DNA of 64,000 bases from positions 643,548-707,547 of the forward strand of contig OZ220490.1 in the NCBI GenBank assembly GCA_965116175.1. The letters are read 5' to 3'. The stretch's first letter is position 1, and each line of letters opens with the position of its first letter. The stretch comes from Bdellovibrionales bacterium (GTDB taxonomy: Bacteria > Bdellovibrionota > Bdellovibrionia > Bdellovibrionales > UBA1609). Below, one piece after another: positions 3,396-21,515 of this stretch. Made by a program: the position numbers and the translations under genes. The notes beneath the pieces are model-generated. The model had not been told where the DNA came from. It saw nothing but the letters and a program-made list of their open reading frames with translations, and did not search any database.

Positions 3396-4301
3396 CTAAA
3401 ATTTAATTTTTAAAGCAGCTTTACTGCCCTGAATATCAAGTTCCGCCGGTGTTTGAAAAGGCAAAGGGTGGTGAGGTTGTTTATGGCCGCAAGGCAATCC
3501 AAAAATCATAGGAATATTGCAAACATCAGAAAAACTTTTTAAAACTCGGGTTTTTAAAGAATTATTATTTAAAGGAAAAAAACTGCCAAAAAGAATCGCC
3601 CGAACACCCTCTAAAGCTCCTGAGTAAAATAGATGGTGCAAAAGCCTATCCAGCTTATAATCCTCTTCATTAACATCCTCTATAAATAGGAAATGAGATT
3701 TAAAACTTGGAAACCAAGAAAGCCCTACACAGCTTGACAGAAGGCTGAGATTGCCCCCTGTAATACGAGCCTTTAACTTTTTTTTAGGATGTTTTCCAAA
3801 CACTTTCAAGTTGTTAAAACTTATTTTTTTCAACCCAAATAAAACATTTTTTAAAAGAGAAAACTCTGCTTTAGATAAATCTGGCAACTCAGAAACAAGA
3901 GGAGCATGAACTGTCTTTTGATTTTTGCTGTTAAGATAAACATGCAAAGGGCTGCCATCACTATAGCCAATAAAAAGTTTTTTAGTTGTTTTAGAATAAT
4001 TTTGGACAAAAAAAGGCATAAGTTTTTGCAGCCCATAGCCCCCTCTCAACATCCATACGGCTGAAGAATCTTTGCTTAAAAAAGCTTGATTCAAAAACTG
4101 AGATCTCTCCTTATTTTTGTTGGCATGAAACAGCCAAGGAGCAATAGCTCCTTTTGCCAGCCTTGGCTTTAAACCCCAATTCTGTAAAATCCTAATCCCT
4201 CTTTTCCAACGATTGTTTTTAGGAAAAGATGAAGGGGCTATAATATCAACAATGTCACTCTGTTTAAGCTTCATTAAGGACAAATATAGCTTTGATGGCA
4301 A
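3396..4301 (-). CDS. ldcA: LD-carboxypeptidase (peptidase S66, muramoyltetrapeptide carboxypeptidase-like)
   Basis: IIAPSS start, nucleophile region GYSDGS, acidic FIEDVNE and C-terminal LPCGH motif. Size is 301 aa. Confidence 0.8.
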   Translation of the reverse strand: MPSKLYLSLMKLKQSDIVDIIAPSSFPKNNRWKRGIRILQNWGLKPRLAKGAIAPWLFHANKNKERSQFLNQAFLSKDSSAVWMLRGGYGLQKLMPFFVQNYSKTTKKLFIGYSDGSPLHVYLNSKNQKTVHAPLVSELPDLSKAEFSLLKNVLFGLKKISFNNLKVFGKHPKKKLKARITGGNLSLLSSCVGLSWFPSFKSHFLFIEDVNEEDYKLDRLLHHLFYSGALEGVRAILFGSFFPLNNNSLKTRVLKSFSDVCNIPMIFGLPCGHKQPHHPLPFQTPAELDIQGSKAALKIKF

Positions 4302-4330
4302 ATCAAATCAATGCCTGAAATGGATATAAA

Positions 4331-4540
4331 GTGCAGCGGTTAATATAGGATCTGACAGGACCCGTGTTTGCTGTCCGTTTTTCTATTTGCCTGTCTTAAT
4401 CTTAAATGTTTCGACTCCCTTAAAGTAAGTAAATTTTCTATCATTTTTCCATTCTGATTTTATATGCCTGTAAAGCTTTAAGACTTTCCTTTCATGGTAT
4501 TCCGTCCATTTCATTCTATTATTCATAAACCCTCCCATGA
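4331..4540. mobile_element. Degraded IS481-family left end (terminal repeat plus decayed 3' end of a transposase gene)
   Basis: GGTTAATATAGGATCTGACAGGACCCGTGT...TGTCCGTTTTTCTATTTGCCTGTC aligns by eye with the left end of the intact IS (7990-8060: AGTTAAGATATGATCTGACAGTTACCCGTGT...TGTCCGTTTTTTTATTTATCTGTCC). Similarity continues further in (CCCTTAAAGT vs CCTTTAAAGT; CGTCCATTTCAT vs CGTCCGCTCAT). No intact ORF. Confidence 0.55.
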
Positions 4541-4841
4541 GAAAGCTATTGTCAATCAAAAGACAAAGCTATTTCTTCATCTCTATTTGTTTAGCTGCAC
4601 CTATTATCTGAGTGTAAAATTTTATATTAAAGGGATTAGGCTTAAGTTGTCATGAACCTAAACTAATAACTATTAAGATCTTTTATGTGTTTTATGAAAA
4701 AAATTATCAAATTGCTTATTTTTTATACAAAATCTTCTATAAAAACCAATATTTTCATAAAAAAATTTCAATATTTGTATTATTAAATCCTTTTAAGTGT
4801 TATTTAAAAAGCCTTAAAAAAATGTAAGGAGGGTATCAGTT

Positions 4842-7800
4842 GTGAGTAAATTTTATTTTATATGTCTAATTGTTTCAGGCTTGTTTTTAAGCTCCTGTTG
4901 GCCAAGTGGAAGGAACACTGATTCTGATGATCATTTAATAGATCAAATTAGCAAGGGAAACAATGGAGAGTTAAGCAGTGAAGCGAAAGATTTTATTGCT
5001 AGGAAGTGTATTAAAAGAAATCATCATTTTGCTGATGGACAGACAGATAATCTTTATGGCAGAGAATGTATTGAAGGAAAACATCTTGTTATTAAAACCA
5101 ATAATGATGGGGAGCTTATAACTACAACGGCTTCTATAAATTTTTTAAATCTGGAAAAAGGAGTTGATTTTATAAATCGATTTTATAACCCAAGCTATGA
5201 AATTGTCCAAGGGGGAGATGATTGGATTCCTTTTTTAAAAGATTTTCTCCCTGCGGGTGATCAACTGGCTTCAGCTAGGAATTTTTTTGGCTCCAGAAAC
5301 ACAGAGTATCGTATAATTTTTCAAACTTTAGGAAATTATCTAATCTTAAATAAAGCTTCAAAAAATCTTGATGATATTCCTTATATTGAAAGAACAGCAA
5401 TGGAAAAAAATAAAGATGGGGACTATAAGAAAACAGAAGATGGCTATTTTATGGTTCCTTTTTTGGGTTATTCTATTAAATATTGCAGTCCTGATGTTAT
5501 AGAGAGTAGAGGACAAAGAACTTATGAATACCGGGCAAAATGTGATCCAGCGGATTCAAAGGAGAGAGCGGAGTATCTTCAGGTTGTTAAAGGACAGCAG
5601 GTATCTTTTGCCTATGTCCCTGAAAAAAAGGATTTATTTCCCTCAGAGTATTTTGACGGGGAGTGGTTTTTTTCTGAAGGCGATATTGAAACCTCTGACC
5701 GAACAGGAGAACTATCTCCTTTTTCTGCCACTCTTATAGAATTTGAAAAAACATCAAACTCTCTGGATTTTATTGATGTCAGTGGAAATGTGGAAAGACG
5801 CAATCAGAAGGTTCAAAATACGAACCTTCCTGTAATTTGGCAAAAGTATGAAATGAATACTGCGCAGGGAGGTATTTTTAAAGAATTTGGAGAAAGGTTA
5901 TCTAGTGATCATATTTTAATACAAAGCCCTTATCTAAGAATCAATTTTGAAGCTTTGTTGAAAAATGAAAAAGGCGATATTGAAGATTTTTTAATTGGCA
6001 AGGATTATTTTTCTATCACTATGAGGAGGCAGCGTGGAGACAAGAGAGGAAAGTATAAAATGTCCTTTTTGAGGAAATCGGCTTTAGATGACAAGGGTTT
6101 TGTTCCAAGACGCTGGTTTCAAAATGATGATGATCGTTACTATGGAATACTTTTTTCAAGACCCCAAGATGAAAAAAAAGAGGCAGAGTTTTCAAAAGAT
6201 CAAAAGCAAGCCAATCGCCGGATGATTCGTTTTAATATTAACAGTCAAAATACCATTAAATGGCACTTTTCAAAAAACTCTTCTAAAGATCCTGATTACC
6301 GCGCTTTAGCCAGAGAGGCTGTTAAAATTTATGATAGGGCTTTTCAGATTATTACAGCAGGAACAGGAAGGACTGTAAGGGTAGAGTTGATAGAGGGTGA
6401 AGATCAGGAAAAAGATTTAGGAGATATTCGTTATAATCTTATTAACCTCGTTAAAACAGAGGATTTGACTGGTGGAATGGTTGGTCTTTTTGGCGCAGCT
6501 CCTCCTTATGTCAACCCAGATACAGGTCAGATTATTGGGGTAACAGCCAATATTTTTCTACAGAATATTTTAGAGCATACTCAGCGGGTTTTGAGACACT
6601 ATATGATGTATGAAATTTATCAGAAAGATACAAGGTCAGAAGAGGAAAATAAAATTCATGTTGTAGGCGCTTATTTAAAAAATAAAATTGAAAATGAAAA
6701 AAAGTGCTCTGATTTAAAGAGTTTTATAAAAAACAAGAATGAAGAAATAATGAGTGGACGGATAAAAGAGCCTCACCGCCGCAATTTAATGGAAGAACAG
6801 GAAAAACAAGGATTTCTTGATTGTGCAAAAGCAATTTCCAAAAACGAAGTTTTAAAAACCATTCTTCATGAACTGGGGCATAACTTTGGTTTGAGTCATA
6901 ATTTTAAATGCTCCTACGATTCAGCTAATTATTATGAAAGTATAGAAGAAGTTAAGAAATATTTTCCAAATGCGATACTAGATTCTAAAATCGCAGCGCC
7001 GGCAAGCGCCTGTATAATGGATTATCTTCCTATTTTAAATGCTCCGGCCATGACAGTTATTGGGAAGTATGATCTAGCGGCTTTAAAATTTCTTTATATG
7101 GATCAAATTGCAACAGGGGATATGGGAGATGATTTGATAATCCCTAGTATAGATTTGGAAATTTCTGAAGATCCCACTGATCAGAAAGATCTTGAAGATC
7201 AGAAAGTTCTGTCTCAAAGGAAGGTTTATTTGCATTGTCCGGATTACCTTGAGCCAAAAGGAGAAAATTTCTTTTGTCGGAAAGAAGATTATGGAAGTGC
7301 TCCTTTGGAATTAGCTGAGTATTATATTGAAAAATTCAAGCAGAATTTGCAGTCAATGAGATATGTGTATGATTCTTCTGCTTCAGAGATTCTTGGATTG
7401 ATGAATGTTCCTAATGATGAAAGAGGACAATTATATATGGCTCAATATATTTTAAATACACTACATCCTATATCAGAGATATATTTTCGTTGGATGCAGA
7501 TAAGAGATAGATATTTATCTTCGTTATCAAAATCTCATTTGAGCCACTATATTATACCTGTATCCGGAGAGGATGATCAGCCTATAAAGCGTTATGAAGC
7601 CGCTATTGACCAGCCGCCAGAGAATGAGCCAGATTCAGTAAGGGACGAGTATATAAGTTTTCACTCCATACGAGAGTCCATTAATGATTTTATGCTGGAT
7701 CTTGTATTGCCTGAGCGAGATTCTCTTATATTTTTTGCCCTTCAGGCTATGAAATGTCGTATTAAAGATAAAGATGGAAATGAAACTTTTGTTGATTTTA

Positions 7801-7984
7801 ATTTTATAAGAGAACAGACAACTTTTAGATATCAAGAAAAGCTTTATGCGCCCAATTGTCGTTCTGCAATGGTAACTGAACTTCTTAAAAGTCATGGATT
7901 AGAGGTCATTGGCCAAAAAGGTCTAGAAGATTTTGATTCTTATTATTCAGCAGAAAGAGCTGAAAATAGGCATGGACAATTATG
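4842..7984 (+). pseudogene. Zinc metalloprotease lipoprotein (metzincin motif, DUF4953-like), 5' part, interrupted by IS
   Basis: GTG start 8 nt after AAGGAGGG. Lipobox LFLSSC. HELGHNFGLSH (HEXXHXXGXXH) at 6867-6899 and downstream ACIMDY. The ORF-track stop at 8003 lies inside IS sequence. Confidence 0.8.
7978..7984. repeat. Target-site duplication AATTATG (left copy)
   Basis: An identical 7-mer directly flanks both IS termini. Confidence 0.85.
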
Positions 7985-9183
7985 TGTACTAGTTAAGATA
8001 TGATCTGACAGTTACCCGTGTCAGTTATCTCCTAATTGTCCGTTTTTTTATTTATCTGTCCTACCTTTTCATCCCACAAATACTTTGCTTCCTTTAAAGT
8101 TTGTATTGGGGTTCTGCCATTACACATCTTCCCCTGATGCGTCCGCTCATAATTATACTTATACAACCACTCGTCAAGATCTTTTTGCAAAGTTTCTATA
8201 TTAGTATAAATCTTCTTTCTAAATGTCACTTGATAAAACTCCTGTAAAATGGTTTTGTGAAACCTCTCACATATCCCATTCGTCTGAGGATGACGAGCCT
8301 TTGTCTTCGTATGGTCAATATCATTCAAAGCTAAATAAAGCTCATAGTCATGACTATCTGGCTTCCCACAAAACTCCGTCCCCCTGTCTGTTAAAATCCT
8401 CAAAATCCCTAAACCCTCCTGCTCGTAAAAAGGCAACACTCTATCATTTAATAAATCTGCTGCTGTAATCGGCGTCTTCATCTTATAGAGCTTACAATGA
8501 GCTATCTTCGTATAAGTATCTACATAGGTCTGTTGATACACTCGTCCCACTCCTTTTAAGGTCCCAACATAAAAAGTATCCTGACTCCCAAGATACCCCG
8601 GATGTTCTGTCTCTATCTCTCCATGAGCTATACGGCTTTGCTGAAAACGCTCTACAGCTTGTATTTGACTCTCTGTAAGAACTCCCCCAGACTTAGCTAC
8701 TTTTTCCTCTACATATTTCAACCTCTTGTTTATCGTTTCTAAATCATGTCTTAGCCAAACACATCTCACTCCACAAGGGGATATCTTCATACCTTTCTTA
8801 GCCAGCTCATTTTTAATACGGACTTGACCATAAGCAGGATATTCAAAAGATAAACTAAGAATCTCCTCTTCTATAGCTTCATCAATACGATTCCTCATAT
8901 TTGGCTTTCTTTTGGAAGTCTCTAAAAGAGCCTCAACACCTCCTTGCTCAAAAGCCATTTTATACCTGTAAAATGTATCTCTTGAAAAGCCCATTACCTT
9001 ACAGGCTCTTGACACATTACCGAGTTGTTCTGCTAAATTCAGCAAACCAACTTTATTTCTTATGATTTTTCTGTTAGTTTCTATCATGGGTTACCTCCTT
9101 TATGTTTTGATAGACTACATCTTTATCAAAACGGGTAACCCTGATCTTTTCAAACAGTGTCAGATCATGTCGTAACTAGTACA
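7985..9183 (-). mobile_element. Intact IS481-family insertion sequence (1,199 bp)
   Basis: Terminal inverted repeats are TGTACTAGTTAAGATATGATCTGACAG (left) and rc TGTACTAGTTACGACATGATCTGACAC (right). It carries a single DDE transposase ORF and is flanked by 7-bp direct repeats. Confidence 0.9.
8032..9087 (-). CDS. IS481-family DDE transposase (HTH plus rve integrase core)
   Basis: 351 aa. N-terminal HTH (LGNVSRACKVMGFSRDTFYRY). DDE residues sit in SQDTFYV, LTDRGTEF and NGICERFHKT. RBS AAGGAGGT lies upstream of the ATG. Confidence 0.9.
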   Translation of the reverse strand: MIETNRKIIRNKVGLLNLAEQLGNVSRACKVMGFSRDTFYRYKMAFEQGGVEALLETSKRKPNMRNRIDEAIEEEILSLSFEYPAYGQVRIKNELAKKGMKISPCGVRCVWLRHDLETINKRLKYVEEKVAKSGGVLTESQIQAVERFQQSRIAHGEIETEHPGYLGSQDTFYVGTLKGVGRVYQQTYVDTYTKIAHCKLYKMKTPITAADLLNDRVLPFYEQEGLGILRILTDRGTEFCGKPDSHDYELYLALNDIDHTKTKARHPQTNGICERFHKTILQEFYQVTFRKKIYTNIETLQKDLDEWLYKYNYERTHQGKMCNGRTPIQTLKEAKYLWDEKVGQINKKTDN

Positions 9184-9190
9184 AATTATG
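9184..9190. repeat. Target-site duplication AATTATG (right copy)
   Basis: An identical 7-mer directly flanks both IS termini. Confidence 0.85.
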
Positions 9191-9920
9191 GGATGTTGTC
9201 CCTTTTAAAAATATAGTTGATAGAATTAATAACCCCATATATGGAATTTTCAAAAAAACCCCGAAGCCTAATTTTTTTGATAGTCCTAATTTTTTTGACA
9301 GCTTTAGAAAGAGGTTTGAAAAGCGTCTTTTAAAGGATGGGCCTCATTCTAAAAGTGATCTTGAATTTATGAAAAGAATGCATAAACAAGTTGGAGATAT
9401 AATGAGAAAATTATTAGGTGAATCAGATAGCACTAAAGCAATTTTCAATCACAACAAAAACTATTTAACAGCTAAGTTGTATCTTTTAGGAACAGGAGAC
9501 CGTTCTTTTAACGCTCTTATTGAAAAAAAAATGGAAGGTGAGAGTCGTAAAAATATTATTCATCCTTTTCTACAAGAAGAATATGATAAATATGAGAATT
9601 ATGAGGATTTAGCTGATGAAGAAAGGCCAGAAGGGTTTAAAAATCACAAGCCTTCCCGTTTTGAAGATTATGTTATTGCTTTGGATACAACAATGGTAAT
9701 ACTGAAGGCGAATGTGCTTGTAACTCCTTACCAAAGAGACAGCTTTGCTTTGAAATTGATTAAGGAATATAATAAAAATGAAAAGGAAATTACAAAACTC
9801 AAACAACAATTGGACAGTGGAGAAAACTTATCTTTTCTACAGAGAGCGGATTTAAAAAGAAGAGAAGACCTCAATCAAGCTTTAAGAGGTATAATGAATG
9901 TTTGGCAAGAGTTTTACTAA
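9191..9920 (+). pseudogene. Zinc metalloprotease lipoprotein, 3' part (same frame as 4842-7984 once the IS and one TSD copy are removed)
   Basis: The frame from 9192 is open through the ORF-track ORF 9369-9920; (9369-9192) is divisible by 3 and no stop intervenes. Confidence 0.8.
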
Positions 9921-10913
9921 GTGATACAACGGTTATATATTATCTTTCCTCTCTTGTATCTGCTGTTTCCGCAATCAGGTTTTGGCTTTTCTGATACAGA
10001 ATTGAATCGTGTGGAATCTGAAGAAGGGGAAGGGGCTTCTTCTAAGGCTTGGGGGGTGGATCTTGGTTTTTCTTTAAAGAGAAATCTGGAAATCAACCCC
10101 CGTCTGCAAGGAGCTGCAGAAGGGTCAATTTGGAGTCCTGATACAGAGGCTTCTTTTTTAGACCCTTCTGTTTTATATTATGCTTTAGGTCTAAGGCTTA
10201 ATTATCCTCTTAAAAACAGCGCATCCTTTTTTAATCATATTGGTTTGAGGGGCCATACTGTTGAAAGTGTATTGAGCCATACAACTGTATTTTTAACAGG
10301 TTCATTTGACTCTCCTTTTAAGGGCCATAAATTTTATCTTAAGGATTATAATTTTTCTGACTATTTTTTCTATGCTTTAGGGGATTTGATCGCCGGCGCC
10401 ACAAGCCGTATTTACAAAAGTGATAAGCTTTTAAGCTATTTTGACGTATCTGTTATTCTTTTTCCTCTGTCGCGTTTTTCTAAAGAGGCCAGCTTAATTA
10501 CAACTTTGGGCAGCACTGTGAGATTTTTGCGTCAAATTCAAAAAAAAGAGCTGTGGAGCCTGTCATTTGTCTCAAGCCATAACTTTGCTTACAGTCAATA
10601 TAAATATGCTTCCACTGATAAAACAGGGCGGGATTGGAATATTCCCTTAGATACAAGCCATAGCATAGGCTTTCTCTTGGGGCAGAGCTATAATCAATTT
10701 ATGCCTTCCAGGGCAAGGTTTTATTTGACTTATTACATGGGACTGGATGCCATGTATAATCACAATCATTTCCTCACACTGGGCCATTCTTTTTCCTGGA
10801 AGATCAGGAATACATTTCGTCTTATGTTTTCAGTTCACTGGAGAGACAATATTGCTTTTTATAATCTCTCTGATAAAAATGTGAGAAAAAAACTCCAGTC
10901 AGATGGGACTTAA
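9921..10913 (+). CDS. Secreted hypothetical protein, beta-rich (possible outer-membrane protein)
   Basis: GTG start immediately after the upstream TAA (translational coupling). Signal peptide MIQRLYIIFPLLYLLFPQSGFG. Alternating hydrophobic pattern; no recognised motif. Confidence 0.55.
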   Translation: MIQRLYIIFPLLYLLFPQSGFGFSDTELNRVESEEGEGASSKAWGVDLGFSLKRNLEINPRLQGAAEGSIWSPDTEASFLDPSVLYYALGLRLNYPLKNSASFFNHIGLRGHTVESVLSHTTVFLTGSFDSPFKGHKFYLKDYNFSDYFFYALGDLIAGATSRIYKSDKLLSYFDVSVILFPLSRFSKEASLITTLGSTVRFLRQIQKKELWSLSFVSSHNFAYSQYKYASTDKTGRDWNIPLDTSHSIGFLLGQSYNQFMPSRARFYLTYYMGLDAMYNHNHFLTLGHSFSWKIRNTFRLMFSVHWRDNIAFYNLSDKNVRKKLQSDGT

Positions 10914-11463
10914 CGCGAACCTTCTTTACATTAAAGGGCTCTTATTCTTTTTGATTGTAAGCCCCTGTTATACTGACTGGTCTGAAAATTCTGTCTTCTG
11001 CGCTTTCATGTTTTTATCTGACAAATAAAAACTTGTAACTCATGGTGTAGATGGGAAAACTTGTCCTAAAGATTCATTTGATATTAGAATTGTTAAGATT
11101 TTATTTAGAATTCAAAAGGATTAGGTTAAAAATTCTGTTGCATTGTTAAGATTGCTTTAAAGGTCTTTTTTTCTATCTGTTTATCTGGTAAATAATCATT
11201 AAAGCTTAGAACTTTGGACACGGTATTTCTTTAATTCTGGTCTAAATCTTAGTTTTTGTAAAACCCGGTTTCTATAACTCTTAATACTTGATATTTGGCA
11301 CAATCAAATAGTTATGCAGAGTGTGGGAATTTTCAAACGGATTTCTTTTTATTAGGAATTATTTCTCTGATTTTTTTGCATAGAGAAATTGTGGTTTTAA
11401 ACTTAATCTTCAACACAGATATTGTAAAAGATAATGGAGGGATGCCAAAAAAAGGTTTGTTTA

Positions 11464-12933
11464 ATGAAAAGCATTTTTAAGTTTTGTTTTTTTGTGTTTA
11501 TTGTTTTTATTTTATGCATGAGAGCGAGTTTTGGTTCAATTTTAGATAAAAAACTCCTATTGGCTGAACAAAATGTTTTTGGGCAAGACTCTGCCGAAGA
11601 TAAAGCTCTTATTGAAAAAAATACCACAGCGGCGCAAATAGATCATTCAAATACGGAAAAATCTGTTCATTCAGAATTAAATGTTTCACAAACAAGCGTT
11701 TATGAAAATAAATCTGTTGAACAGGAACAGACTGTAAAAAAACTAAAAAGCAGCTCTTCTGTTGTTGAAAGAGAAGGTTTAAACGAACAGGAATGGAATA
11801 CAGATTTAAAATTTGATTCTCTATATCATCAACCAGTTATTGAAGAGGATAAAGACATTGATTTTTTTTGGAAGACAGTTTTTAAGTTTAAAGCTCTTTC
11901 TATTCGTGAAGATAGAATAGATGCCACAGTGCATGTAGAAAATTATGGAAAATTTGAATGGCAGGTTGAAGATTTCCTCTCTTTTTATAATGAGGGGCTT
12001 CTTCTTGGCCGGAGTGGTTTTGTTCAATCTGTTTATGAAAGAGGGGATAGAAAGAGCGGTTTTCATCCCGTTGACGCTTATCTGGATATTAAAACCTCTT
12101 TTGTGATATTCAGATTTGGTATGGTCAAGCAGGATTTTTTAAAAGCGCCGCTTTTGGTTACAGATAAAACATTTCCAAGCATGATGCAGCAATTTTATTT
12201 TGATTGGGATAAGTCAAAGTTGGATATTATTTTACAGTCAGCTATTACAAATAATCCCTTGGAGTCAGTGACAAGGGGAAAAAAGTTAAATGAATGGCCT
12301 ACCTTATTTCTCACCTCTTCTGTATTTTGGGATTTACAGGATATTTTTAATTTCAATATAAAAGAAAAATTAACAGCCTTTTATATAACAAATTTATCCT
12401 CCAGTATTGCAGAAGACAGCAGACGCTATGGCAACAGCATTACAGAAGGCAGGGCTCGTTTTAAGTATGCTTTTTTAGGTCTTTATAACAGTTTGAGTTT
12501 TCAAACCGCTTTGTCTGATAATTGGATGTTTGAAATAGGAGGGGATTTTATCCATAATTTTGCCGGAGCCGTTGATTATAACAAAGAGGAGACTTTTGCT
12601 TTTAATCTTGATATGAGAGCTAGAGGAAATAATCAGGGCGAGAGGATTTACGGTTCTATATATCATAATTATAAGGAGCTTATGGAATTAAAACTTACAG
12701 CTGAGTATTTTTCCAATCAATCTGACAGCTCAGTGGCCTCTTTTAACAGTGAGCTTTATGGGCACAATAACAGAGTGGGAGGGAGAGTTGTTTTTCAATC
12801 TCATTTTTATAATTCGGGATTGACTTTTGGTTTGTCTTATACAGGAAGCCTTCCCATAGATGAAACCAGGAACCAGATGGGATTTGCCAGCGCTGTCTCT
12901 ATGTTTTTAAAGACTAATTATTTGGCTATTTGA
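11464..12933 (+). CDS. Secreted hypothetical protein, possible outer-membrane beta-barrel
   Basis: Start moved to the internal ATG that gives signal peptide MKSIFKFCFFVFIVFILCMRASFG. The C-terminal third has alternating beta-strand-like patterns (GLTFGLSYTG...AVSMFLKTNYLAI). The start could be 11434. Confidence 0.55.
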   Translation: MKSIFKFCFFVFIVFILCMRASFGSILDKKLLLAEQNVFGQDSAEDKALIEKNTTAAQIDHSNTEKSVHSELNVSQTSVYENKSVEQEQTVKKLKSSSSVVEREGLNEQEWNTDLKFDSLYHQPVIEEDKDIDFFWKTVFKFKALSIREDRIDATVHVENYGKFEWQVEDFLSFYNEGLLLGRSGFVQSVYERGDRKSGFHPVDAYLDIKTSFVIFRFGMVKQDFLKAPLLVTDKTFPSMMQQFYFDWDKSKLDIILQSAITNNPLESVTRGKKLNEWPTLFLTSSVFWDLQDIFNFNIKEKLTAFYITNLSSSIAEDSRRYGNSITEGRARFKYAFLGLYNSLSFQTALSDNWMFEIGGDFIHNFAGAVDYNKEETFAFNLDMRARGNNQGERIYGSIYHNYKELMELKLTAEYFSNQSDSSVASFNSELYGHNNRVGGRVVFQSHFYNSGLTFGLSYTGSLPIDETRNQMGFASAVSMFLKTNYLAI

Positions 12934-12950
12934 GACAAGGAGTGAGAAAT

Positions 12951-15900
12951 ATGAAAGAAAAAAATAAAATGAGTTTTTTAAATGCTGCTGTTTTAAGCTT
13001 TTTCTTTATCGCTGTTTTGCCTTCTTGCACAAAATTAAACAGAAAAAGTTCTGTGGGAGAGGACACTGCCGGATTTATTGTTGAAGAAATTACAAGAACT
13101 TTTAACTTGGAGCCTATTATTATAGACACTGAAAAAGGTTTGCCTAAAACTTTTGTTGTTAATTTAAGAACCTGTATAAAGGATAAAGTGGATAAGGATA
13201 ATTCCATTCAGGAAACTCCATTTATTATTGAATATGAGACCAATCTTTCCGATTCTAAAGAACAGTCCACTCAGCTTAAGGAGGAAAGAGTGGTTTCTGA
13301 TCCCAATGGCTGTATTCAATGGGATGAAGAGTATAAATATAAATTTATAAAAAATCCTGTGTGGTTGGGTTTAAAGAGAAGCATTAGAACAGAAAAAGGT
13401 TTTTATCCCTCTGGAAAAGTTGAAATCTATATGGCAGTCAATCCTTGGTTGAGTGATGAAGATGAACAGTATCCTTCCATTTTGGATATGAGATATTCCG
13501 AGAGGCATAGAGTTTTAAAAAAGAAATATGCAGAAAATGGTTTAAAATTTTTATCGCAGCAGTTAGAGAGTGAGCTTCCTCAGCTTTGGGCTCCGGTTAT
13601 AGATATCCAGACAGAGACAAGCCCTCAGCCTTCTTCTGCTTCCACAGCAGCTGAAAATGAAATGATAAAAGAATGTAAAAATAATACCAATGAGAATGAG
13701 AGGAAAAAATGTGAAAAAGAAATGGAAATAAGAACATTGCTTTCAGCTTACCAGAAAGGAGGATGTGTCAGTGAGAAAAAGGATCATTGTTATAAGCGTC
13801 ACTTAAAATTGGATATTCTCATTCCCTTAATGTTGAGAAGATACAATATAAGGGATGTTATTGTGGACAGTAAGTTGAGCGGAGGGACTTATAATACAAA
13901 TGTTCAGCTGATCATTATTCCTGATATTGATAAAACAACCTCTTACCGTATCCATGAAAAAATTTGTGAAAACAAAAATGTTGAATTTCATAAAAAAGGA
14001 GGTCAGGAGACAAAGTTTTTAAATCTGGAATGTGATATAAAGGTTGTTTATTTCAATAAAAATGCAATTTATAAATTGCTTGTTGAAATCACGCCAAGCA
14101 GTGATAGCCCTGCGCTTCCCTTTAAGCCATTTCAGGGGGTTTATACTTTTAAATTTGATTTTAGTAGTTTGAGAAATGAGTATTCCATAGATACAGATAT
14201 AGATGAAAGGTATAAGGAGGTTTTAAAAAAAGATGAAAAGATTAATATCTTTGGAGAGATGAATATTCGTGATGTGTTAGATGTTCATAAAAGAAATAAA
14301 AAGGAGTTATTAATTAAAGGTTTTTATCAACCCCAGTTGGATGGGAATAGTAATTTTCAATTTTCTAATGTAGATAATACGGTAAAATGTAAGAAGAATG
14401 ATAATGTGGTAAAGAGAATAGTCGTTTTTAACGGTGAAATCTGTTTAAAAGATACTTTGTCTGATAAAATTTACACACAAACCCCTTTTCGTGTTTTTGT
14501 GGAAAAACCAAATATAGATGGAGGTAAAACAATTGAGGAGGTTTTTAAATCAAAAGGAGGGCCTGATATAACCGATCAAGAGCCTTATACAACAGATGAA
14601 CAGGGATGCATTTCAATGACAATTCCTTTAGAGCATAAGGTTTATAATCGGCAGCAGTATTTTCCCATTGATGTTCACTTTCTCTCTGAGGGTTTAAATC
14701 TCTATGGACGGGTTCGCCCTGCGCTTAACCCTTGGCATATAGCCTGGCAGTCTCACCTTGATGCCACTAAACTTCCTGATGAGGATATACGGCTGACACC
14801 GGGAGGAGTGACTTTCCCCAGGATTGTTATCAACCAGTTTAAATCTGTAAATCTTTTTCCCTCTTATGGTTTAGATAAGTTTTTGGGTATTCATATTTAC
14901 CACAGGGTTTATTTTTTGTTTCAGCCTTTTGTTCAAAGACATGATAATGTGGCTTTAAGTTTGGATCATAGGGCCAGAGAGCTTTTACGGGATGGTTACT
15001 ATATGGTTCGTCTGCTTCTTTTGAGAAACCCTCAGGAGACAGGGCATCTCACTCGTGTTTTGAAAGACGAACAGCTCAATAGAAATAGGAAGGAAATTAT
15101 AAATGAAGAATTAAACTTTGATATTGAGGCTCCTGAATACATCACTCATACAGACACTTTTGTGGAGGTTGAGGCTAACTTTGTAAACCTCTATATGCCT
15201 CTTTATATTACGGCAAAACAGCTTTATTATGTGGCCTCAAGAAATATTATTTCTGTTGAGGTTGTCCCAGTTGATCCTTCAGATTTTATTTTCAAAGAGG
15301 TTGAAAATGATGGAGCTTGTGAATTAGATCTTGAAGAAATGAGGAGAAGGGATTGGAAGCCACAGCCTTTTTTTGAGCATGAGCTTGTAAACCGGCCTTA
15401 TATTGGCGCTTTTAATATTCAGAACTGGACCAACTGGAATATTCTAAGGCATTCAAAAAAATTTAATTCAGACAAAATTATTGATAAGGCTATTGCAAGT
15501 GGAAAAATAGATAAAAGATACAAACACTTTAATATGAGCAGCAGGCAGCAGCCAAACACTGAAGGAAATCTGAAAACGGCTGAAGAGGCTTGTTTAAGAG
15601 GAACAAAATATAATTTTCATCAGGATCCAAGTTCTGAGGAAGTTGCTAAATGTATACAAGATTGGAAAGACTCTTCTTTATTGGCTGAAATTGAATACCA
15701 TATTCAATCTGAAGGAGAGTTGGGTGTTTTAGATCAACAGGATGTCTTAAAGGAATTTGCAGAGCAGAATGCCTTAAGGATAGTGAATTTATCACAGCGC
15801 AAAGGAGAACAATTTATACAGGACATTAAAAAGGCTTTAAAAAAAGTTCATTTAGAGAAACATTATCTTAAAGCATCAAAAATATTTCCAGTTATTCCTG

Positions 15901-17975
15901 ATGAAGATAAAGGGACATTGAAAAAGCAGATGGATGATAAATGTTCTGACTACTTATGGGGTTTGGCCGGGGATAAACTTGGGGGTGTATTTCGTGATAA
16001 ATTGTGTCGTCATGAGATTCTTAAAACTTATGTAGATCAGCTTAAAGATAGATTTGAAGCAGAAGGCTTTTCAGAAGAAAAAATCCAGCTTGCTAAGGTC
16101 TTGACAAAAATAGAAAAAAATGGGAACTATCGTGACTTTTTGATGAGTGACAAAAAACGAATGCATAAAGATTCTATTCAAAATATTATAAATGAAAGAA
16201 TCAACAATCAAAATGCAAACAACCCGGATGTTTTAAATTTTACACAGTCTCTTTGTTATTTTTGGTTTGATTCTTATTTGAAAGATTATCTTGAAAAAGA
16301 TCAAATGATTTCCGCCTATACCAATTATATTAGGAAGTTTGATTATTACAATGTTCTTGAAACAGAGGGTTCTGCTCAAAGCAAAATAAGTGCTTTTTAT
16401 GACCTTGTTAATATTATTGGTATAACAGATGCAGCATCACAAGGGGATGAGAATTTAAAAAACTGTCATGAAGACTATGTCCAATGTATTGCTTTTGACC
16501 ATTGCCAATTAAGATCTATAAATAAACAAAAGAGCAGCTACTGTGAGAACATGAATACGGGAGTCAATGATGAAGAAGCAAGTTGTATGAAGATATTGGA
16601 TGCAGAATGTTCTAAAAATAGCACTTTTCCTCTTTGTAAAAAACGAGAAAGCACAAGCTGTAATGCTTCTTTATACTCTTTTTGCAGATTGAATGTGGAT
16701 CATAATATCTGTTACAAATTTGAAAACCGTTGTTTGGTAAATTACCGATCCTGCGTTCAGTCTGGAGATGTTCAGGATGTTTTTAATCCTGAATCTATTT
16801 TTAATTTTGGCTGCACAAAAAAACCTGTAATCTTTTTTGATGATTATTTAGAAAAGCCAAAATGTTTTCAGCATAACCCTTTAAAGGCCTGTCTTAAAAA
16901 CCCGTATCATTTTTTTAAGTTTGAAAATAAAATGGTGGTTTATGAGTCTTCAGAAAAAAATCCTGTTTATAAAAGCGGTTATCTTAAAAGTTTTAATGTG
17001 TCTGGTAATTTTTCTATTGGCAGTTACATGAATTGGACATCTCAAAGATCGCATAGCCTGTCTTCAAGCATGGGTCTTGGCACCGATTTAAAAGGCGCTC
17101 AAACTCTTGGCAGACCAGCTGCTGCTTTTGGTAATTTGAGTGGGGGTGTAAATATGAGTTTTTTAAGTGTTAGTCAAAGTATGAATTCAGCTGAATCCAA
17201 CAGCAATAGGAGAGCTGTTGATGTGAGAGGAGGTGAATCCACTTTTTTAACGGTGGGAAATGCAGAGATAGACATAGATGTGAAAAAGTTTCAAAAATGT
17301 CTGGTAGTCAAGCCCCGCCCTAACGCTTTTTTCACTTGGATGGCCACTGGATTTACAGAAGGAACAAAAGGTTTGTTTAGCCCTTTTCCTGAAGATATAT
17401 GGACAGAGGATGCGGCAGGTAAAGATTTTAAAAAGATCCTTCTTGCAAGGCCTGGTCTTATTATTTGTAATCCTATTGAAGAGAGAACTGCAGATAATGA
17501 AGAAACAATTACAGAAAATTATTACTATATCAATCAGGCTTTAACCAATCCTGAGAACTCTCAGTTCCTCAATTTGTATGATTTAGCCAATAGACCTTTC
17601 GTTAATGTTTTAAGAGGGAAAAAAGAGTTTGTTAAATATTACCACATGATGCGAGGAATTATTGGAGGGGATGATGGCCATTTAGATGAAAATCTTGATT
17701 CCCATAGCACCCCTGAAAATATGTTTATCAATTACAGTTATCCTATTGAAGAGGCTATAGGTTTAAGTCTGGCTATAAGGGACTTTAATGAAACAGGATT
17801 TTATCCTGGGATTTACGATTATGCTGAAGATGCAGATGAAGAGCTGGATCTTGTTAAAAAAGAGGAAACGGGATTTTTTCAGGGAGTGTTTCAGAAATTT
17901 AGGGATTATGTCAATTGGTTTGATGTTCCAGATGCTCCGAGTCGTCAAATACCTGTTCAAGAAGGTTCTCAATGA
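12951..17975 (+). CDS. Giant orphan lipoprotein (1,674 aa) with duplicated N-terminal module and Cys-rich block
   Basis: The ATG at 12951 is preceded by AAGGAG. Lipobox AVLPSC. 15 Cys fall within about 150 residues (nt 16452-16910). No catalytic motif recognised. Confidence 0.7.
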   Translation: MKEKNKMSFLNAAVLSFFFIAVLPSCTKLNRKSSVGEDTAGFIVEEITRTFNLEPIIIDTEKGLPKTFVVNLRTCIKDKVDKDNSIQETPFIIEYETNLSDSKEQSTQLKEERVVSDPNGCIQWDEEYKYKFIKNPVWLGLKRSIRTEKGFYPSGKVEIYMAVNPWLSDEDEQYPSILDMRYSERHRVLKKKYAENGLKFLSQQLESELPQLWAPVIDIQTETSPQPSSASTAAENEMIKECKNNTNENERKKCEKEMEIRTLLSAYQKGGCVSEKKDHCYKRHLKLDILIPLMLRRYNIRDVIVDSKLSGGTYNTNVQLIIIPDIDKTTSYRIHEKICENKNVEFHKKGGQETKFLNLECDIKVVYFNKNAIYKLLVEITPSSDSPALPFKPFQGVYTFKFDFSSLRNEYSIDTDIDERYKEVLKKDEKINIFGEMNIRDVLDVHKRNKKELLIKGFYQPQLDGNSNFQFSNVDNTVKCKKNDNVVKRIVVFNGEICLKDTLSDKIYTQTPFRVFVEKPNIDGGKTIEEVFKSKGGPDITDQEPYTTDEQGCISMTIPLEHKVYNRQQYFPIDVHFLSEGLNLYGRVRPALNPWHIAWQSHLDATKLPDEDIRLTPGGVTFPRIVINQFKSVNLFPSYGLDKFLGIHIYHRVYFLFQPFVQRHDNVALSLDHRARELLRDGYYMVRLLLLRNPQETGHLTRVLKDEQLNRNRKEIINEELNFDIEAPEYITHTDTFVEVEANFVNLYMPLYITAKQLYYVASRNIISVEVVPVDPSDFIFKEVENDGACELDLEEMRRRDWKPQPFFEHELVNRPYIGAFNIQNWTNWNILRHSKKFNSDKIIDKAIASGKIDKRYKHFNMSSRQQPNTEGNLKTAEEACLRGTKYNFHQDPSSEEVAKCIQDWKDSSLLAEIEYHIQSEGELGVLDQQDVLKEFAEQNALRIVNLSQRKGEQFIQDIKKALKKVHLEKHYLKASKIFPVIPDEDKGTLKKQMDDKCSDYLWGLAGDKLGGVFRDKLCRHEILKTYVDQLKDRFEAEGFSEEKIQLAKVLTKIEKNGNYRDFLMSDKKRMHKDSIQNIINERINNQNANNPDVLNFTQSLCYFWFDSYLKDYLEKDQMISAYTNYIRKFDYYNVLETEGSAQSKISAFYDLVNIIGITDAASQGDENLKNCHEDYVQCIAFDHCQLRSINKQKSSYCENMNTGVNDEEASCMKILDAECSKNSTFPLCKKRESTSCNASLYSFCRLNVDHNICYKFENRCLVNYRSCVQSGDVQDVFNPESIFNFGCTKKPVIFFDDYLEKPKCFQHNPLKACLKNPYHFFKFENKMVVYESSEKNPVYKSGYLKSFNVSGNFSIGSYMNWTSQRSHSLSSSMGLGTDLKGAQTLGRPAAAFGNLSGGVNMSFLSVSQSMNSAESNSNRRAVDVRGGESTFLTVGNAEIDIDVKKFQKCLVVKPRPNAFFTWMATGFTEGTKGLFSPFPEDIWTEDAAGKDFKKILLARPGLIICNPIEERTADNEETITENYYYINQALTNPENSQFLNLYDLANRPFVNVLRGKKEFVKYYHMMRGIIGGDDGHLDENLDSHSTPENMFINYSYPIEEAIGLSLAIRDFNETGFYPGIYDYAEDADEELDLVKKEETGFFQGVFQKFRDYVNWFDVPDAPSRQIPVQEGSQ

Positions 17976-18300
17976 TCAGTAACTTAGCTGGGAATTTTTT
18001 AGTTTCATGACAACTTAAAGTATCATGAACCATTAAGAAAATCCTCTGGCATCTGTCTATAAGACTATAAAAGTTTCTTAATTTTTAGTCAAAAGAGAAA
18101 ATTTTATACTAAGTATGTTTAAATGTTGATTTTTAGTTTTGCTTATTATATAGCTCATAACTATTTTCAATCACTTGATGAATTTGATAGGGAACTTTAT
18201 TTATAGAAACTGTGAATGAAAAAGAAATTCCAATCAAATCAATTGTTGCTCTTGACGGTATAAACCTTGAATCTAACACTTAACCAAAGAGGAGAAAAAA

Positions 18301-19101
18301 ATGAAAACAATGTTTATAATGTTATCTAATCGCAAGTTCAAAGAACAGCAACAAATCAATATATTTCAGGAGTCTATTATACACATTTTTTCAAAAGTTT
18401 TTTTAGGATTATTTTTAGCACTTTTCTCTTTTTCTGTTTTAGCAGATATGAGAACCCAAGAAGTGCCCAAATATGTTACTCCAGATGAGTGCTTTCAGTT
18501 TGCAAATTTCGGTACACAGATTATTAATTACATCTGCAAAGATAAAGATGTGGTAATCCCGGACTCTGTAATAACGATTGGGGTTGCAGCTTTTGCTTAT
18601 CATCAACTAAGCTCAGTGACGATCCCAAACTCTGTAACAACGATTGGAGTTGCAGCTTTTGCTTATAATCAACTAAGCTCAGTGACGATCCCAAACTCTG
18701 TAACAACGATTGATTTTGCGGCTTTCCGTAATAATCAACTAAATTCAGTGACGATCCCAAACTCTGTAACAACGATTGGGGTTGCAGCTTTTGCTTATAA
18801 TCAACTAAGCTCAGTGACGATCCCAAACTCTGTAACAACGATCGAGTATGCGGCTTTTGCTTATAATCAGCTAAGTTCAGTGACGATCCCAAACTCTGTA
18901 ACAACGATTGAGGCTGGGGCTTTCCGTAATAATCAGCTAAGTTCAGTGACGATCCCAAACTCTGTAACAACGATTGAGGCTTGGGCTTTCCTTAATAATC
19001 AACTAAGCTCAGTGACGATCCCGAACTCTGTAACAGTGATTAGAGGTTGGACTTTCGACGATAATGTTGATATAGTTTTAGGTTCACCTACAGGAAACTA
19101 A
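18301..19101 (+). CDS. BspA-type leucine-rich repeat protein (LRR_5-like), secreted
   Basis: RBS AGAGGAG. Hydrophobic signal-like segment. Eight 22-aa units of the form VTIPNSVTTIGVAAFAYNQLSS. Confidence 0.85.
   Translation: MKTMFIMLSNRKFKEQQQINIFQESIIHIFSKVFLGLFLALFSFSVLADMRTQEVPKYVTPDECFQFANFGTQIINYICKDKDVVIPDSVITIGVAAFAYHQLSSVTIPNSVTTIGVAAFAYNQLSSVTIPNSVTTIDFAAFRNNQLNSVTIPNSVTTIGVAAFAYNQLSSVTIPNSVTTIEYAAFAYNQLSSVTIPNSVTTIEAGAFRNNQLSSVTIPNSVTTIEAWAFLNNQLSSVTIPNSVTVIRGWTFDDNVDIVLGSPTGN
18550..19077. repeat. 8 tandem 66-bp coding repeats (LRR units)
   Basis: Units start at 18550, 18616, 18682, 18748, 18814, 18880, 18946 and 19012. Units 2 and 4 differ at a single base. Confidence 0.9.
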
Positions 19102-19234
19102 ACTTAATTTCCCGAGTTTGACAGAAGCGAGTGCGCCAAAGTGTCGAACTCGAAAGTAGAGCGAGTAGGAGTGTAAAATCGGTTATTTTTTTATATTTAC
19201 AAATGCAAATACTTTTGTTATTACTTTATTTGAT

Positions 19235-19455
19235 ATGAAATTTGAGGGCTTCAACTGGACACCGGCAACACAGATAGATGTCAGAAACATGGACTGACTC
19301 AAGAGGAGATAGAGTGCTTTTTTCAACAAAAAAAAGATCTATGTCCGGACATTAAACATGGAGGATCGGTTTTTAGCTATTGGAAAAAGGGTCAAAAAAT
19401 AAAATGATTGTTGTAGCATTTACTTTCAGAACAAAGATCAAAAATTTCTTTACAA
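19235..19455 (+). pseudogene. BrnT-like (DUF497) toxin remnant, multiply frameshifted
   Basis: Pieces lie in three frames: MKFEGFNW / DTGNTDRCQKHGLTQEEIECFF / MEDRFLAIGKRVKK / MIVVAFTFRTKIK. They follow the DUF497 pattern F-W-D..N..KHG..F.E...F....E.R....G......vv.T.R. Confidence 0.5.
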
Positions 19456-19541
19456 TTACATATTTTATATTAAATTTTCTTAAACAGGTTAATTTGAACC
19501 CAAAAAAAGCAAAGCTTTTTATAAAATGAAAGGGCTAAATC

Positions 19542-20597
19542 ATGGTTTTTGAAGCTTTGGATAAAAAGAATAGAGATCATGAGCAAGTTTTCTTTTGTTC
19601 CAGTATTGATACAGGCCTTAAAGCTATTATAGCTATCCACAGCACAAGTTTAGGCCCCGCTTTAGGCGGCTGTCGTATGTATAAATATCATACAGAACAG
19701 CAGGCCTTAGAGGATGTTCTCCGCCTTTCAGAAGCTATGAGTTATAAAGCGGCTATGGCGGATTTAAAGCTTGGCGGCGGGAAATCGGTTATTATAGGTG
19801 ATCCTGATGAGGATAAAACACCAGAGCTTTTATGGTCTTTTGGCACTCATGTAGAGTATCTTCATGGCAGGTATGTTGTGGCCAAGGATATGGGCATCAC
19901 TGTGGAGGATTTACAATATATTGGTGATCAAAGCTCCTATGTGGTAGGCCGGCCTGTGGAGAGAGGAGGTGTGGGTGACCCCAGCCGATCTACAGCTAAA
20001 GGTGTATATTACGGCATCAAGGAGGCTGTTAAGAGCAAATTAAAGAGAGATTCTCTAAAAGGCATTAAAGTTGTTATTCAAGGGCTTGGTGCTGTAGGCT
20101 ATAACCTTGTAGAGTTTTTGGCTCAAGCCAAGGCAGAGCTTTTGGTTTATGATGTTAAAGAATCTGCTGTAAAAAAAGTTCAATCCATATTTCCCAATGT
20201 TAAAATTATTTCTGATGAAGAGGTTTTCACCTCATCTTGTGAGGTCTTTTCCCCTTGCGCCATAGGGGCTATAATCAATGAGGAAAGCATAAAAAAGTTG
20301 AATTGCCCTATTATTGCAGGAGGGGCAAACAATCAATTAAGTTCATTGTCTATAGGCCAAAAATTGGCTGATAAAGGCATACTTTATATACCTGACTTTA
20401 TTATAAATTGTGGTGGCTTGATTTATGTTTCCTCTTATCTCACTCCTAAAAAATCCAATGAATGGATTGAAAAGAAACTTAGAGGTATACCTCGTACAAT
20501 AAAAAAAGTTTGTGAATTTTCTCAGAATGAGGGGGTAGAGCCTGCAGAGATGGCCTTAAGTTTGGCAAAAAATAGAATAAAAAAACAAATATATTGA
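19542..20597 (+). CDS. Leu/Phe/Val (Glu/Leu family) amino-acid dehydrogenase, leucine dehydrogenase-like
   Basis: 351 aa. Catalytic-Lys region ADLKLGGGKSVIIGDP. Rossmann motif IQGLGAVGYNL. Confidence 0.85.
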   Translation: MVFEALDKKNRDHEQVFFCSSIDTGLKAIIAIHSTSLGPALGGCRMYKYHTEQQALEDVLRLSEAMSYKAAMADLKLGGGKSVIIGDPDEDKTPELLWSFGTHVEYLHGRYVVAKDMGITVEDLQYIGDQSSYVVGRPVERGGVGDPSRSTAKGVYYGIKEAVKSKLKRDSLKGIKVVIQGLGAVGYNLVEFLAQAKAELLVYDVKESAVKKVQSIFPNVKIISDEEVFTSSCEVFSPCAIGAIINEESIKKLNCPIIAGGANNQLSSLSIGQKLADKGILYIPDFIINCGGLIYVSSYLTPKKSNEWIEKKLRGIPRTIKKVCEFSQNEGVEPAEMALSLAKNRIKKQIY

Positions 20598-20780: not shown

Positions 20781-21515
20781 ATGTTTAAAAATATCAACCC
20801 AGAGCAAATTGCTTTTTGGCTGAAAAAACATTTAAAAAAGATTTTATTTGTTTTTTCTCTTATGACTTTGTTGGCTTTGGCTTTTATTGGCTGGAGTGAG
20901 TGGAGAAAAAAAGAGGAAACAAAAATTCAAAATTCTCTTTATGAATATCAGGAGGCTTTAAATAAACTTAGAGAAAGGATAGAGGTGGACAAAAAGAATA
21001 CACTTGATTTTTTAATAGAATCTGATGAAAAGAAATTTGTTCCCACTGAGGAAATGAAAAAGAAGGCGGATCTTTATGAAAGGGCCATAACACAACATCA
21101 AAGCTACCAGGCTTCTGCTGTTTTTGCCATTGATTTGGCTGACTTTTATTATGAATATGGGGAAATAGAAAAGGCCAAGGAGCTTTTGTTGCTTTTTGCC
21201 TTTCCTAAAAAAGCTTCAAACATTTATCACTTGGCCTCTTTTCAGTTGGCCTCTTATTATATGGATGAAAAGGACTGTGAAAAGGCCTTAGCTCTTTTGG
21301 AAGCTTTAAGCCTTAACGAAAAAGCGGAATATATGCACCTGGAGAGTCACTTGCAGCAGGCTCTTTGCTTGGAGCATTTAAAACATTATGAACAGGCTTT
21401 AAGAAAATACGAAGATATTTTAAATAAGGATCCTGAGGGTTACACGGGTCGTCTGGCTCGGGATTACAAAAAAATACTGATATTAAATAAAAATTCTGCA
21501 AGAAAAGAAAAATGA
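20781..21515 (+). CDS. Membrane-anchored TPR protein, YfgM-like
   Basis: N-terminal TM segment followed by TPR-like helices. It sits immediately upstream of, and overlaps, a BamB-like gene, as in the yfgM-bamB arrangement of E. coli. Confidence 0.55.
   Translation: MFKNINPEQIAFWLKKHLKKILFVFSLMTLLALAFIGWSEWRKKEETKIQNSLYEYQEALNKLRERIEVDKKNTLDFLIESDEKKFVPTEEMKKKADLYERAITQHQSYQASAVFAIDLADFYYEYGEIEKAKELLLLFAFPKKASNIYHLASFQLASYYMDEKDCEKALALLEALSLNEKAEYMHLESHLQQALCLEHLKHYEQALRKYEDILNKDPEGYTGRLARDYKKILILNKNSARKEK

Follow-up and report, generated by a model that had tools for sequence, protein, structure and literature searches.

Whether neighbouring genes for very large envelope proteins form one acquired system or separate units is the question raised by a 15-kb interval (positions 4302–19541) on contig OZ220490.1 of a Bdellovibrionales bacterium (assembly GCA_965116175.1), which was analysed within a stretch of 64,000 nucleotides, hereafter called the window. 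A sequence-only reading had described in this interval four genes on one strand, named here A to D, and proposed that they work together as an undescribed cell-surface system. We found instead, with a probability that we put at about 0.6, that two independent cassettes have come to lie side by side in a mosaic interval, each combining a very large lipoprotein with its own outer-membrane beta-barrel, of which A-B is likely dead and C-D is intact. Gene order in the window was taken from a six-frame map of open reading frames (ORFs) together with family scans (Pfam and NCBIfam). The four genes, and the insertion sequence (IS) that lies within the first of them, are arranged as follows.

4842–7984, plus strand: 5′ part of gene A, residues 1–1047 of a DUF4953-type metzincin lipoprotein (lipobox LSSC, zinc motif, Met-turn).
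4842–8003, plus strand: the 5′ ORF of A as the DNA stands, 1,053 aa, with HELGHNFGLSH...ACIMDY (ORF map).
7985–9183, minus strand: IS481-family insertion sequence of 1,199 bp splitting gene A (NF033577, inverted ends, target duplication).
8032–9087, minus strand: IS481-family transposase, 351 aa (NF033577, 277 bits, cut-off 224).
9191–9920, plus strand: 3′ part of gene A, residues 1048–1290 (read-through after excision; A-family hidden Markov model (HMM) on ORF 9180–9917, 9.2e-35).
9369–9920, plus strand: 183-aa ORF within the 3′ part of gene A (ORF map).
9921–10954, plus strand: gene B including its out-of-frame terminal strand (ORF 9921–10913, 330 aa, GTG start; restored stop 10952–10954).
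11464–12933, plus strand: gene C, 489 aa, or 499 aa if started at 11434 (AlphaFold2 (AF2) barrel model, Foldseek, family alignment).
12951–17975, plus strand: gene D, a 1,674-aa lipoprotein with lipobox LPSC (ORF map, family alignments).

The spacing of these genes agrees with the sequence-only reading: the 330-aa GTG-start ORF begins with the very next base beyond the stop codon of the protease gene, a gap of ~520 bp follows, and then come the 489-aa C and the 1,674-aa D. To see how the four families co-occur, every ORF of the fetched loci was searched by tblastn and with HMMs. Relatives of D are rare, with only nine among 5.8 billion clustered proteins, none of them named and none with a Pfam domain, and scanning a single genome from each species yielded 20 further D loci, 19 of them labelled as Bdellovibrionales, Bdellovibrionaceae or Oligoflexia metagenome-assembled genomes (MAGs) and one merely as 'bacterium'. 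The D-bearing genomes include complete chromosomes of 1.5–2.5 Mb and some sponge-derived bins. In all but one of the 24 D loci (23 of 24) gene C immediately precedes D, and neither A nor B was found within 10 kb in any of the 24. A B homologue directly follows A in four other loci (L025, L026, L083 and L084; B-family HMM 1e-111 to 6e-122), with no C or D near any of these pairs. Furthermore, the profiles of B and C were unrelated to each other by hhalign, as were those of A and D. Since no D locus carries A or B, the four genes represent two independent pairs that are adjacent only in the window, and the proposal of a single four-gene system gives way to separate A-B and C-D pairs. The description of the interval as an envelope module holds insofar as two lipoproteins and two barrel-type partners are encoded there, but these do not make up one module. 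Among the D loci, L013 has no C homologue upstream of the D gene and L015 has C split into two overlapping ORFs (8435–9466 and 9280–9729), which may reflect loss or decay of the barrel partner. In another locus a second C-like ORF (L024:23482–24636) lies ~8 kb past the first C-D pair, near the locus end, and may begin another pair.

The C and D proteins have diverged together. Pairwise-identity matrices of the two proteins from 19 loci were correlated with r = 0.945, a value as high as which was obtained in none of 2,000 Mantel permutations, and both proteins group into the same three clusters. In the two-copy genomes (L016/L018 and L019/L020), one C-D pair falls in each of two matching clusters, which indicates a joint duplication of C and D. 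Only 17 nt separate the two ORFs in the window, and in several other loci they overlap. A gene for a Mur ligase (mpl) immediately precedes C in L001, L011, L012, L016, L017 and L019, and is set apart from it by one gene in L002 and by ~6 kb in L004; in L001, L002 and L004 the full order is ldcA-mpl-(0–3 genes)-C-D, and ldcA was seen before mpl wherever the gene calls extend that far. These mpl genes of related genomes carry Mur_ligase, Mur_ligase_M and Mur_ligase_C domains. As the mpl-C order is kept even in the distant group in which D is only 22–25% identical (L011, L012, L016, L017 and L019), C-D is inherited DNA of the lineage and not an acquisition, and its ancestral position, as read from gene order, is ldcA-mpl-C-D. 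The ldcA-mpl genes of the window are oriented away from C-D, and A-B together with an IS remnant occupies the junction; an IS-associated rearrangement or insertion would have brought A-B between ldcA and C-D. The claim that the interval is typical of acquired DNA was thus not upheld, given that its GC content (0.345) matches that of the whole window (0.347) and that the position of C-D recurs in distant relatives; the arrangement suggests that only A-B, beside the IS remnant, is the product of insertion or rearrangement. The flanks of L002–L004 and L026 carry ankyrin-repeat, Fic, DarT-Macro and topoisomerase-VI-like genes, which fits a host-associated lifestyle.

The family of C comprises 23 relatives, none of which is annotated. 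An AF2 model built from the 23-sequence alignment gave a 16-stranded barrel at residues 132–484, with a predicted local distance difference test score (pLDDT) of 80–94 in most barrel blocks, preceded by an N-terminal linker that is disordered and variable in length. In this model, turns of 2–4 residues lie on one side and loops of 10–28 residues on the other, which is the usual outer-membrane topology. Foldseek matched the model to 291 PDB chains at E ≤ 0.001, and the best matches listed were mainly porins and AlgE-type channels (OmpM1, MOMP, AlgE, OmpF and OprB) with E of ~1e-9 to 5e-12, 8–11% identity and target-normalised template-modelling (TM) scores of ~0.45–0.65. No porin Pfam match and no PDB sequence match was obtained for C. 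The fold of the model and its similarity to solved proteins together identify C as a predicted outer-membrane beta-barrel, in keeping with the secreted protein for which the sequence-only reading had noted a barrel-like C-terminus. The strongest conservation in the family resides in two long loops, QDF..APL..TDKTFPS (223–239) and NQSD.S.A..NSE.YGHNNR.G (418–439).

The start of D is preceded by an AAGGAG ribosome-binding site, and the cysteine of its lipobox (C26) is invariant in a 9-sequence D alignment; a lipobox of the form L-x-[GAS]-C is thus present in both D and A. A beta-sandwich-like region of ~110 residues occurs twice in D, at 60–170 and 485–597 (hhalign, 97% probability, E = 1.5e-11). 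The middle of the protein is variable, helical and Cys-rich, and its C-terminal region (~370 aa) is conserved. The least conserved parts are the Cys-rich block (1150–1300) and the helical middle (850–1090), with the N- and C-terminal regions being conserved, a pattern as would be expected if an exposed middle were under diversifying pressure. D gave no match in Pfam, NCBIfam or PDB sequence searches, its alignment members gave only scattered single matches in a Pfam scan at E ≤ 1, and its C-terminal domain had no match on plasmids by tblastn. The statement that no domain is recognised beyond the zincin block was therefore sustained, in that searches of Pfam, NCBIfam and PDB sequences assigned none of the four proteins to a characterised family.

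Gene A carries HELGHNFGLSH at residues 676–686 (6867–6899) and the Met-turn ACIMDY at residues 723–728 (7008–7025), and so has the two hallmarks of a metzincin, HEXXHXXGXXH and a Met-turn. H706, E707, H710, H716 and M759 are invariant in a 34-sequence A-family alignment (A7). The window protein scored 19.9 bits (E = 4.8e-4) against PF16313 (DUF4953), of which the gathering cut-off is 24.2, and related long forms of A scored 31–48 bits. The A family has 61 relatives, 46 of them with PF16313, and consists of 58 large proteins (928–1,441 aa) and three distant proteins of Vibrio mimicus; two of the large proteins carry a source name, both from Oligoflexia MAGs. The source contig of 1,894,270 bp, shared with the window, encodes two intact A paralogues (P0011 and P0026). 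The lipobox LSSC of A is matched by L-x-S-C (L-T-A-C or L-T-G-C in two) in 13 of 14 A-family N-termini, P0011 ending before the site. A probably belongs to a long branch within the DUF4953 Met-zincins, an uncharacterised family, and a full-text literature search for DUF4953 returned no paper mentioning the name. A metagenome scan with the A family recovered only distant DUF4953 proteins, 22–42% identical and mostly over the catalytic core, with the exception of one 25-residue stretch at 68% identity. One locus (L085:1–14650) holds three long DUF4953 protease paralogues in tandem (1,347, 1,409 and 1,405 aa) and no B-like gene.

The B family is small, since an exhaustive HMMER search among 1.84 billion proteins found only 36 representatives. 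It shares the conserved N-terminal motif FSETELDSLESSG, and its profile shows 11 beta-amphipathic segments in a period-2 hydrophobicity scan. Hydrophobic N-terminal leaders were read by eye in both B and C. All 26 aligned B homologues end in ...F.LGGSYSF, but the window B stops ~20 residues earlier, and its terminal strand sits in the -1 frame right after a run of seven A residues (10886–10892); one added A in this run gives a B of 344 aa ending in ...FFTLKGSYSF. A terminal aromatic strand is a signal for outer-membrane insertion. If the assembly is correct, B, lacking its C-terminal insertion strand, would be non-functional. The run at 10886–10892 may equally stem from an error of assembly, be a mutation that has become fixed, or mark a tract prone to slippage. 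No Pfam match at E ≤ 0.1 was found for B or C, with POTRA, ShlB, Bac_surface_Ag, DUF560, TPR and PF11751 all absent; the B alignment members gave only scattered single matches and no DUF560 or TPR in a Pfam scan at E ≤ 1, and a B profile search of PDB sequences returned nothing meaningful.

Gene A is interrupted by an IS481-family element (7985–9183). Its inverted ends of 32 nt, 88% complementary, lie at 7979–8010 and 9158–9189, a perfect 7-bp target duplication (AATTATG) is present at 7978–7984 and 9184–9190, and its transposase scored 277.1 bits against NF033577 (transpos_IS481; cut-off 224), so that DDE transposase model, inverted repeats and target duplication all place it in the family. 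When 4842–7984 was joined to 9191–9920, a reading frame of 3,873 nt and 1,290 codons with zero internal stops was restored; as the DNA stands, A is cut after residue 1,047 and its last 243 residues are severed. The 1,290-codon metzincin lipoprotein of the sequence-only reading is thus right in its motif and lipobox but not intact, as it attains 1,290 aa only after removal of the IS. Likewise, a working proteolytic module is not what this genome encodes, with A split by the IS and B frameshifted, and the A-B copy in the window is most likely dead. The IS end remnant reported at the left edge was confirmed: the sequence at 4320–4660 aligns to the intact IS end, including GATCTGACAG-GACCCGTGT, and positions 4339–4367 are 87% identical to IS positions 8–37 by blastn. 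A solo IS end of 56 bp (22655–22710), 89% identical to the right end of the IS, lies just downstream of a BamB-like gene, and the IS481-family element has therewith left three traces in 19 kb (~4320–4660, 7985–9183 and 22655–22710). A composite transposon was considered and rejected, because the terminus is on the left in each of the two remnants (4339 and 22655), which therefore do not bracket the region.

Distant long DUF4953 proteins, encoded by ORFs of 1,340–1,360 residues, were also found in four unrelated metagenome contigs (L027, L028, L029 and L032), each with a small neighbour. From the gene order these neighbours lie upstream or downstream of the protease gene, at the following places.

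L027:8641–9504: small DUF4953 neighbour.
L028:3182–4558: small DUF4953 neighbour.
L029:35–922: small DUF4953 neighbour.
L032:3215–4063: small DUF4953 neighbour.

The small neighbours have a hydrophobic leader and measure 269–319 aa in these four contigs and 429 aa in a further one (L079), and all such neighbours except that of L028 end in an aromatic residue. The small proteins of L027, L028, L029 and L032 are linked to one another by pairwise BLASTP (E of 0.003 to ~1e-14). They showed no detectable relation to B, as compared by hhalign for the L027 neighbour, and those of L027, L028 and L032 gave no match when scanned against Pfam. The DUF4953 proteins of ~850 aa had no consistent small neighbour of such kind. 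The pairing of long DUF4953 proteases with such neighbours hints at a recurrent design.

The borders of the interval and the other genes around the two pairs are as follows.

1981–3387, minus strand: mpl-type Mur ligase, 468 aa (ORF map; label from its size, its place beside ldcA and the label given earlier).
3396–4301, minus strand: ldcA (LD-carboxypeptidase), left border (Peptidase_S66 1.3e-21, S66C 1.4e-26, NF008424 3.2e-32).
~4320–4660, plus strand: decayed left-end remnant of an IS481-family element (local alignment to 7972–8357).
18301–19101, plus strand: BspA-type leucine-rich-repeat (LRR) protein, 266 aa (PF13306 LRR_5, 8.1e-48).
19246–19451, plus strand: candidate BrnT-type toxin pseudogene in two frames (frame-joined translation, Pfam BrnT_toxin E = 0.023).
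19542–20597, plus strand: Glu/Leu/Phe/Val-type dehydrogenase, right border (family scan).

Family scans confirmed that the interval is flanked by two housekeeping genes, ldcA on the left and the dehydrogenase on the right. The 468-aa ORF of the window gave no tblastn match at E ≤ 1e-5 to the Mur-ligase genes of the related loci. Promoter and terminator scans gave predictions no better than on shuffled sequence. The four genes of the described core do lie on one strand, but that core left out the LRR gene, and the IS split and the frameshift in B were missed or unstated. The LRR protein has a hydrophobic N-terminus and at least seven near-identical repeats of ~23 aa (IPNSVTTIGVAAFAYNQLSSVT), and a 148-aa ORF on the opposite strand, generated by the repeats, is probably spurious. 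This gene, for which no homologue was found in any related C-D locus at E ≤ 1e-4, probably belongs to neither pair. The toxin pseudogene at the right edge drew a weak signal, its frame-joined translation scoring 15.4 bits against the PF04365 cut-off of 34.5. Directly past the dehydrogenase (20781–22627), the window has two ordinary genes of outer-membrane biogenesis, one for a TPR_21 protein like YfgM and one for a BamB-like PQQ_2 beta-propeller.

The two pairs were compared with known systems in which a barrel accompanies a large surface protein or lipoprotein. Like the DUF4953 Met-zincins (PF16313; compare the TIGR03952 metzin_BF0631 lipoprotein), A is a lipoprotein with HEXXHXXGXXH and a Met-turn; in contrast to the common DUF4953 form of ~850 aa (L031–L078), A and its close relatives have 1,200–1,400 aa, large uncharacterised termini and a barrel-like neighbour. 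SprF/PorP-family barrels of ~300–400 aa are encoded beside giant cell-surface proteins. The SprB-SprF pairs of Bacteroidota resemble the present ones in having a very large surface protein beside its own barrel and many paralogous pairs per genome, but they need type IX secretion and C-terminal sorting domains, whereas A and D have lipoboxes and the lineage here is Bdellovibrionota; neither B nor C matched PorP/SprF (PF11751) in Pfam scans. Slam proteins consist of a DUF560 14-strand barrel with N-terminal TPR and handle substrates of ~30–80 kDa. The Slam (type XI) arrangement is alike in that an outer-membrane barrel gene stands beside the lipoprotein that it surface-exposes (TbpB, fHbp), but neither DUF560 nor TPR was matched by B or C, and the model of C shows 16 strands after a disordered N-terminus, which places both outside this type. 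The pairs were not placed in the class of two-partner secretion (TpsB/Omp85) either, as POTRA, ShlB, Bac_surface_Ag and TPS signatures were absent from all four proteins in Pfam scans. LptD-LptE, like other complexes of plug and barrel, also unites a lipoprotein with a barrel in the outer membrane, but no LptD/LptE family match was obtained, the strands number 16 here against 26, and the lipoprotein here is far larger. The fold of C is that of classical 16–18-strand porins and AlgE channels, from which C differs in being coupled to the gene of a giant lipoprotein. Escherichia coli YfhM/ECAM is a 1,653-aa lipoprotein encoded beside pbpC. D is comparable to such alpha-2-macroglobulins in size, lipoprotein nature, beta-sandwich-like repeats and cell-wall gene neighbours, but a barrel partner is absent in that family, and the 25 D members have no A2M or thioester-domain (TED) signature, no consistent macroglobulin (MG) match and no conserved CxEQ, so that D was not assigned to it. 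With the tests for Slam, TpsB/Omp85, PorP/SprF, LptD/E and alpha-2-macroglobulin all negative, the likeness to these systems is one of layout only.

In the reading that we prefer, the first cassette (A-B) consists of a 1,290-aa metzincin lipoprotein and a barrel-like protein of ~340 aa, present in multiple copies in the lineage, and the second (C-D) of a 16-stranded porin-like barrel and a 1,674-aa lipoprotein, which are intact, were duplicated as a unit and form a core module of the lineage. Each barrel would serve as anchor, docking site or export pore for its own lipoprotein, and the lipoproteins would thus act at or beyond the outer membrane, A as a protease and D as a large protein that binds or scaffolds in contact with host or prey. 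Strict adjacency, duplication as a unit, co-divergence, conserved barrel loops and conserved lipoboxes argue for this partnership. Several points weigh against it. That barrel and lipoprotein are linked, physically or in function, is deduced from the genes, and the activity of D and its side of the membrane are predictions. B is called barrel-like from its sequence pattern and the C-terminus of its family, and adjacency of A and B is not universal, since the three tandem paralogues of L085 and one paralogue in L084 stand without B. C, to judge from its model, resembles an ordinary 16-strand porin and could be a simple diffusion channel. The AF2 model of D residues 475–1674, built from nine sequences, has a mean pLDDT of 48.9, with moderate confidence only for one beta-sandwich-like domain and the helical middle, and in a Foldseek search against the PDB it matched nothing at E ≤ 0.001, giving weak immunoglobulin (Ig), fibronectin type III (FnIII) and complement-MG hints. 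As to the death of A-B, the run of seven A residues may have been misassembled, as homopolymers can be, and B would then be intact; the truncated A, in which lipobox and catalytic motifs are still present, may retain residual activity.

The closest competitor, which we regard as unlikely, takes C for an ordinary diffusion porin and D for a separate periplasmic lipoprotein with an alpha-2-macroglobulin-like protective or scaffolding role, the two being co-transcribed without forming a complex. The nearest structures to C are indeed general porins, D belongs to the size class of YfhM and has a duplicated ~110-residue domain of which one copy was modelled as beta-strands, ldcA and mpl, beside which the pair lies in the ancestral order, serve in peptidoglycan recycling, and the weak Foldseek hints are joined by an MG4 match (E = 0.0016) in 1 of 25 D members. 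However, these 25 members showed no A2M, thioester-domain or consistent MG Pfam matches, and CxEQ occurs in only two of them, at non-equivalent positions; duplication as a unit and co-divergence away from mpl exceed what co-transcription needs, and the conserved long loops of C suggest a specific ligand or partner beyond a pore. More doubtful still is a two-partner-type secretion in which the barrels translocate A and D, whole or in large part, as exoproteins or toxins: a barrel beside a giant substrate recalls TpsB-TpsA, C has 16 strands like TpsB, and a Ser/Gly-rich segment lies between two long predicted strands in the conserved C-terminal region of D, but the missing POTRA, ShlB or Omp85 signature in B and C, the disordered and variable N-terminus of C and the missing TPS domain in A and D do not fit, and the conserved lipoboxes of A and D indicate lipid anchoring rather than release. 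That all four genes act together as one horizontally acquired cell-surface system is highly improbable. It is favoured by four envelope genes on one strand within 13 kb, with IS debris bordering the interval on its left and what may be a toxin pseudogene on its right, yet the co-occurrence data (A or B in 0 of 24 D loci, C or D in 0 of 4 other A-B loci) already largely refute it, and the place of C-D after mpl even in relatives 22–25% identical, the unchanged GC content and the gap of ~520 bp between the pairs add to this.

The annotation of the locus is thereby corrected to two modules, not one, and two uncharacterised, lineage-restricted barrel-lipoprotein pairs remain. With A-B in the window a pseudogene pair, P0011 and P0026 are the better choices for experiments. 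A genome of ~1.9 Mb spends 6.5 kb on C-D, which is kept, sometimes in two copies, at ~22% D identity, and this retention across relatives so far diverged in D indicates that C-D probably matters to the envelope biology of these uncultured, small-genome bacteria. Some C-D relatives come from sponge bins, and published genomes of sponge-associated Bdellovibrionota, possibly of the same lineage, likewise combine a small size with low GC and abundant ankyrin repeats (PMC9944714). A bolder extension, tentative and with the odds against it, would have C-D and A-B exemplify an undescribed barrel route for displaying or docking a giant lipoprotein, with C-D as a core feature of genome-reduced, invertebrate-associated Bdellovibrionota, D as their main organ of host or prey contact, and the pairing in unrelated taxa as part of a wider unrecognised class. 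If the barrels export or anchor the giant lipoproteins, they would add a new type to the few known routes of surface placement, and the pairing, if true, would provide the first functional context for the widespread, unstudied DUF4953 proteases.

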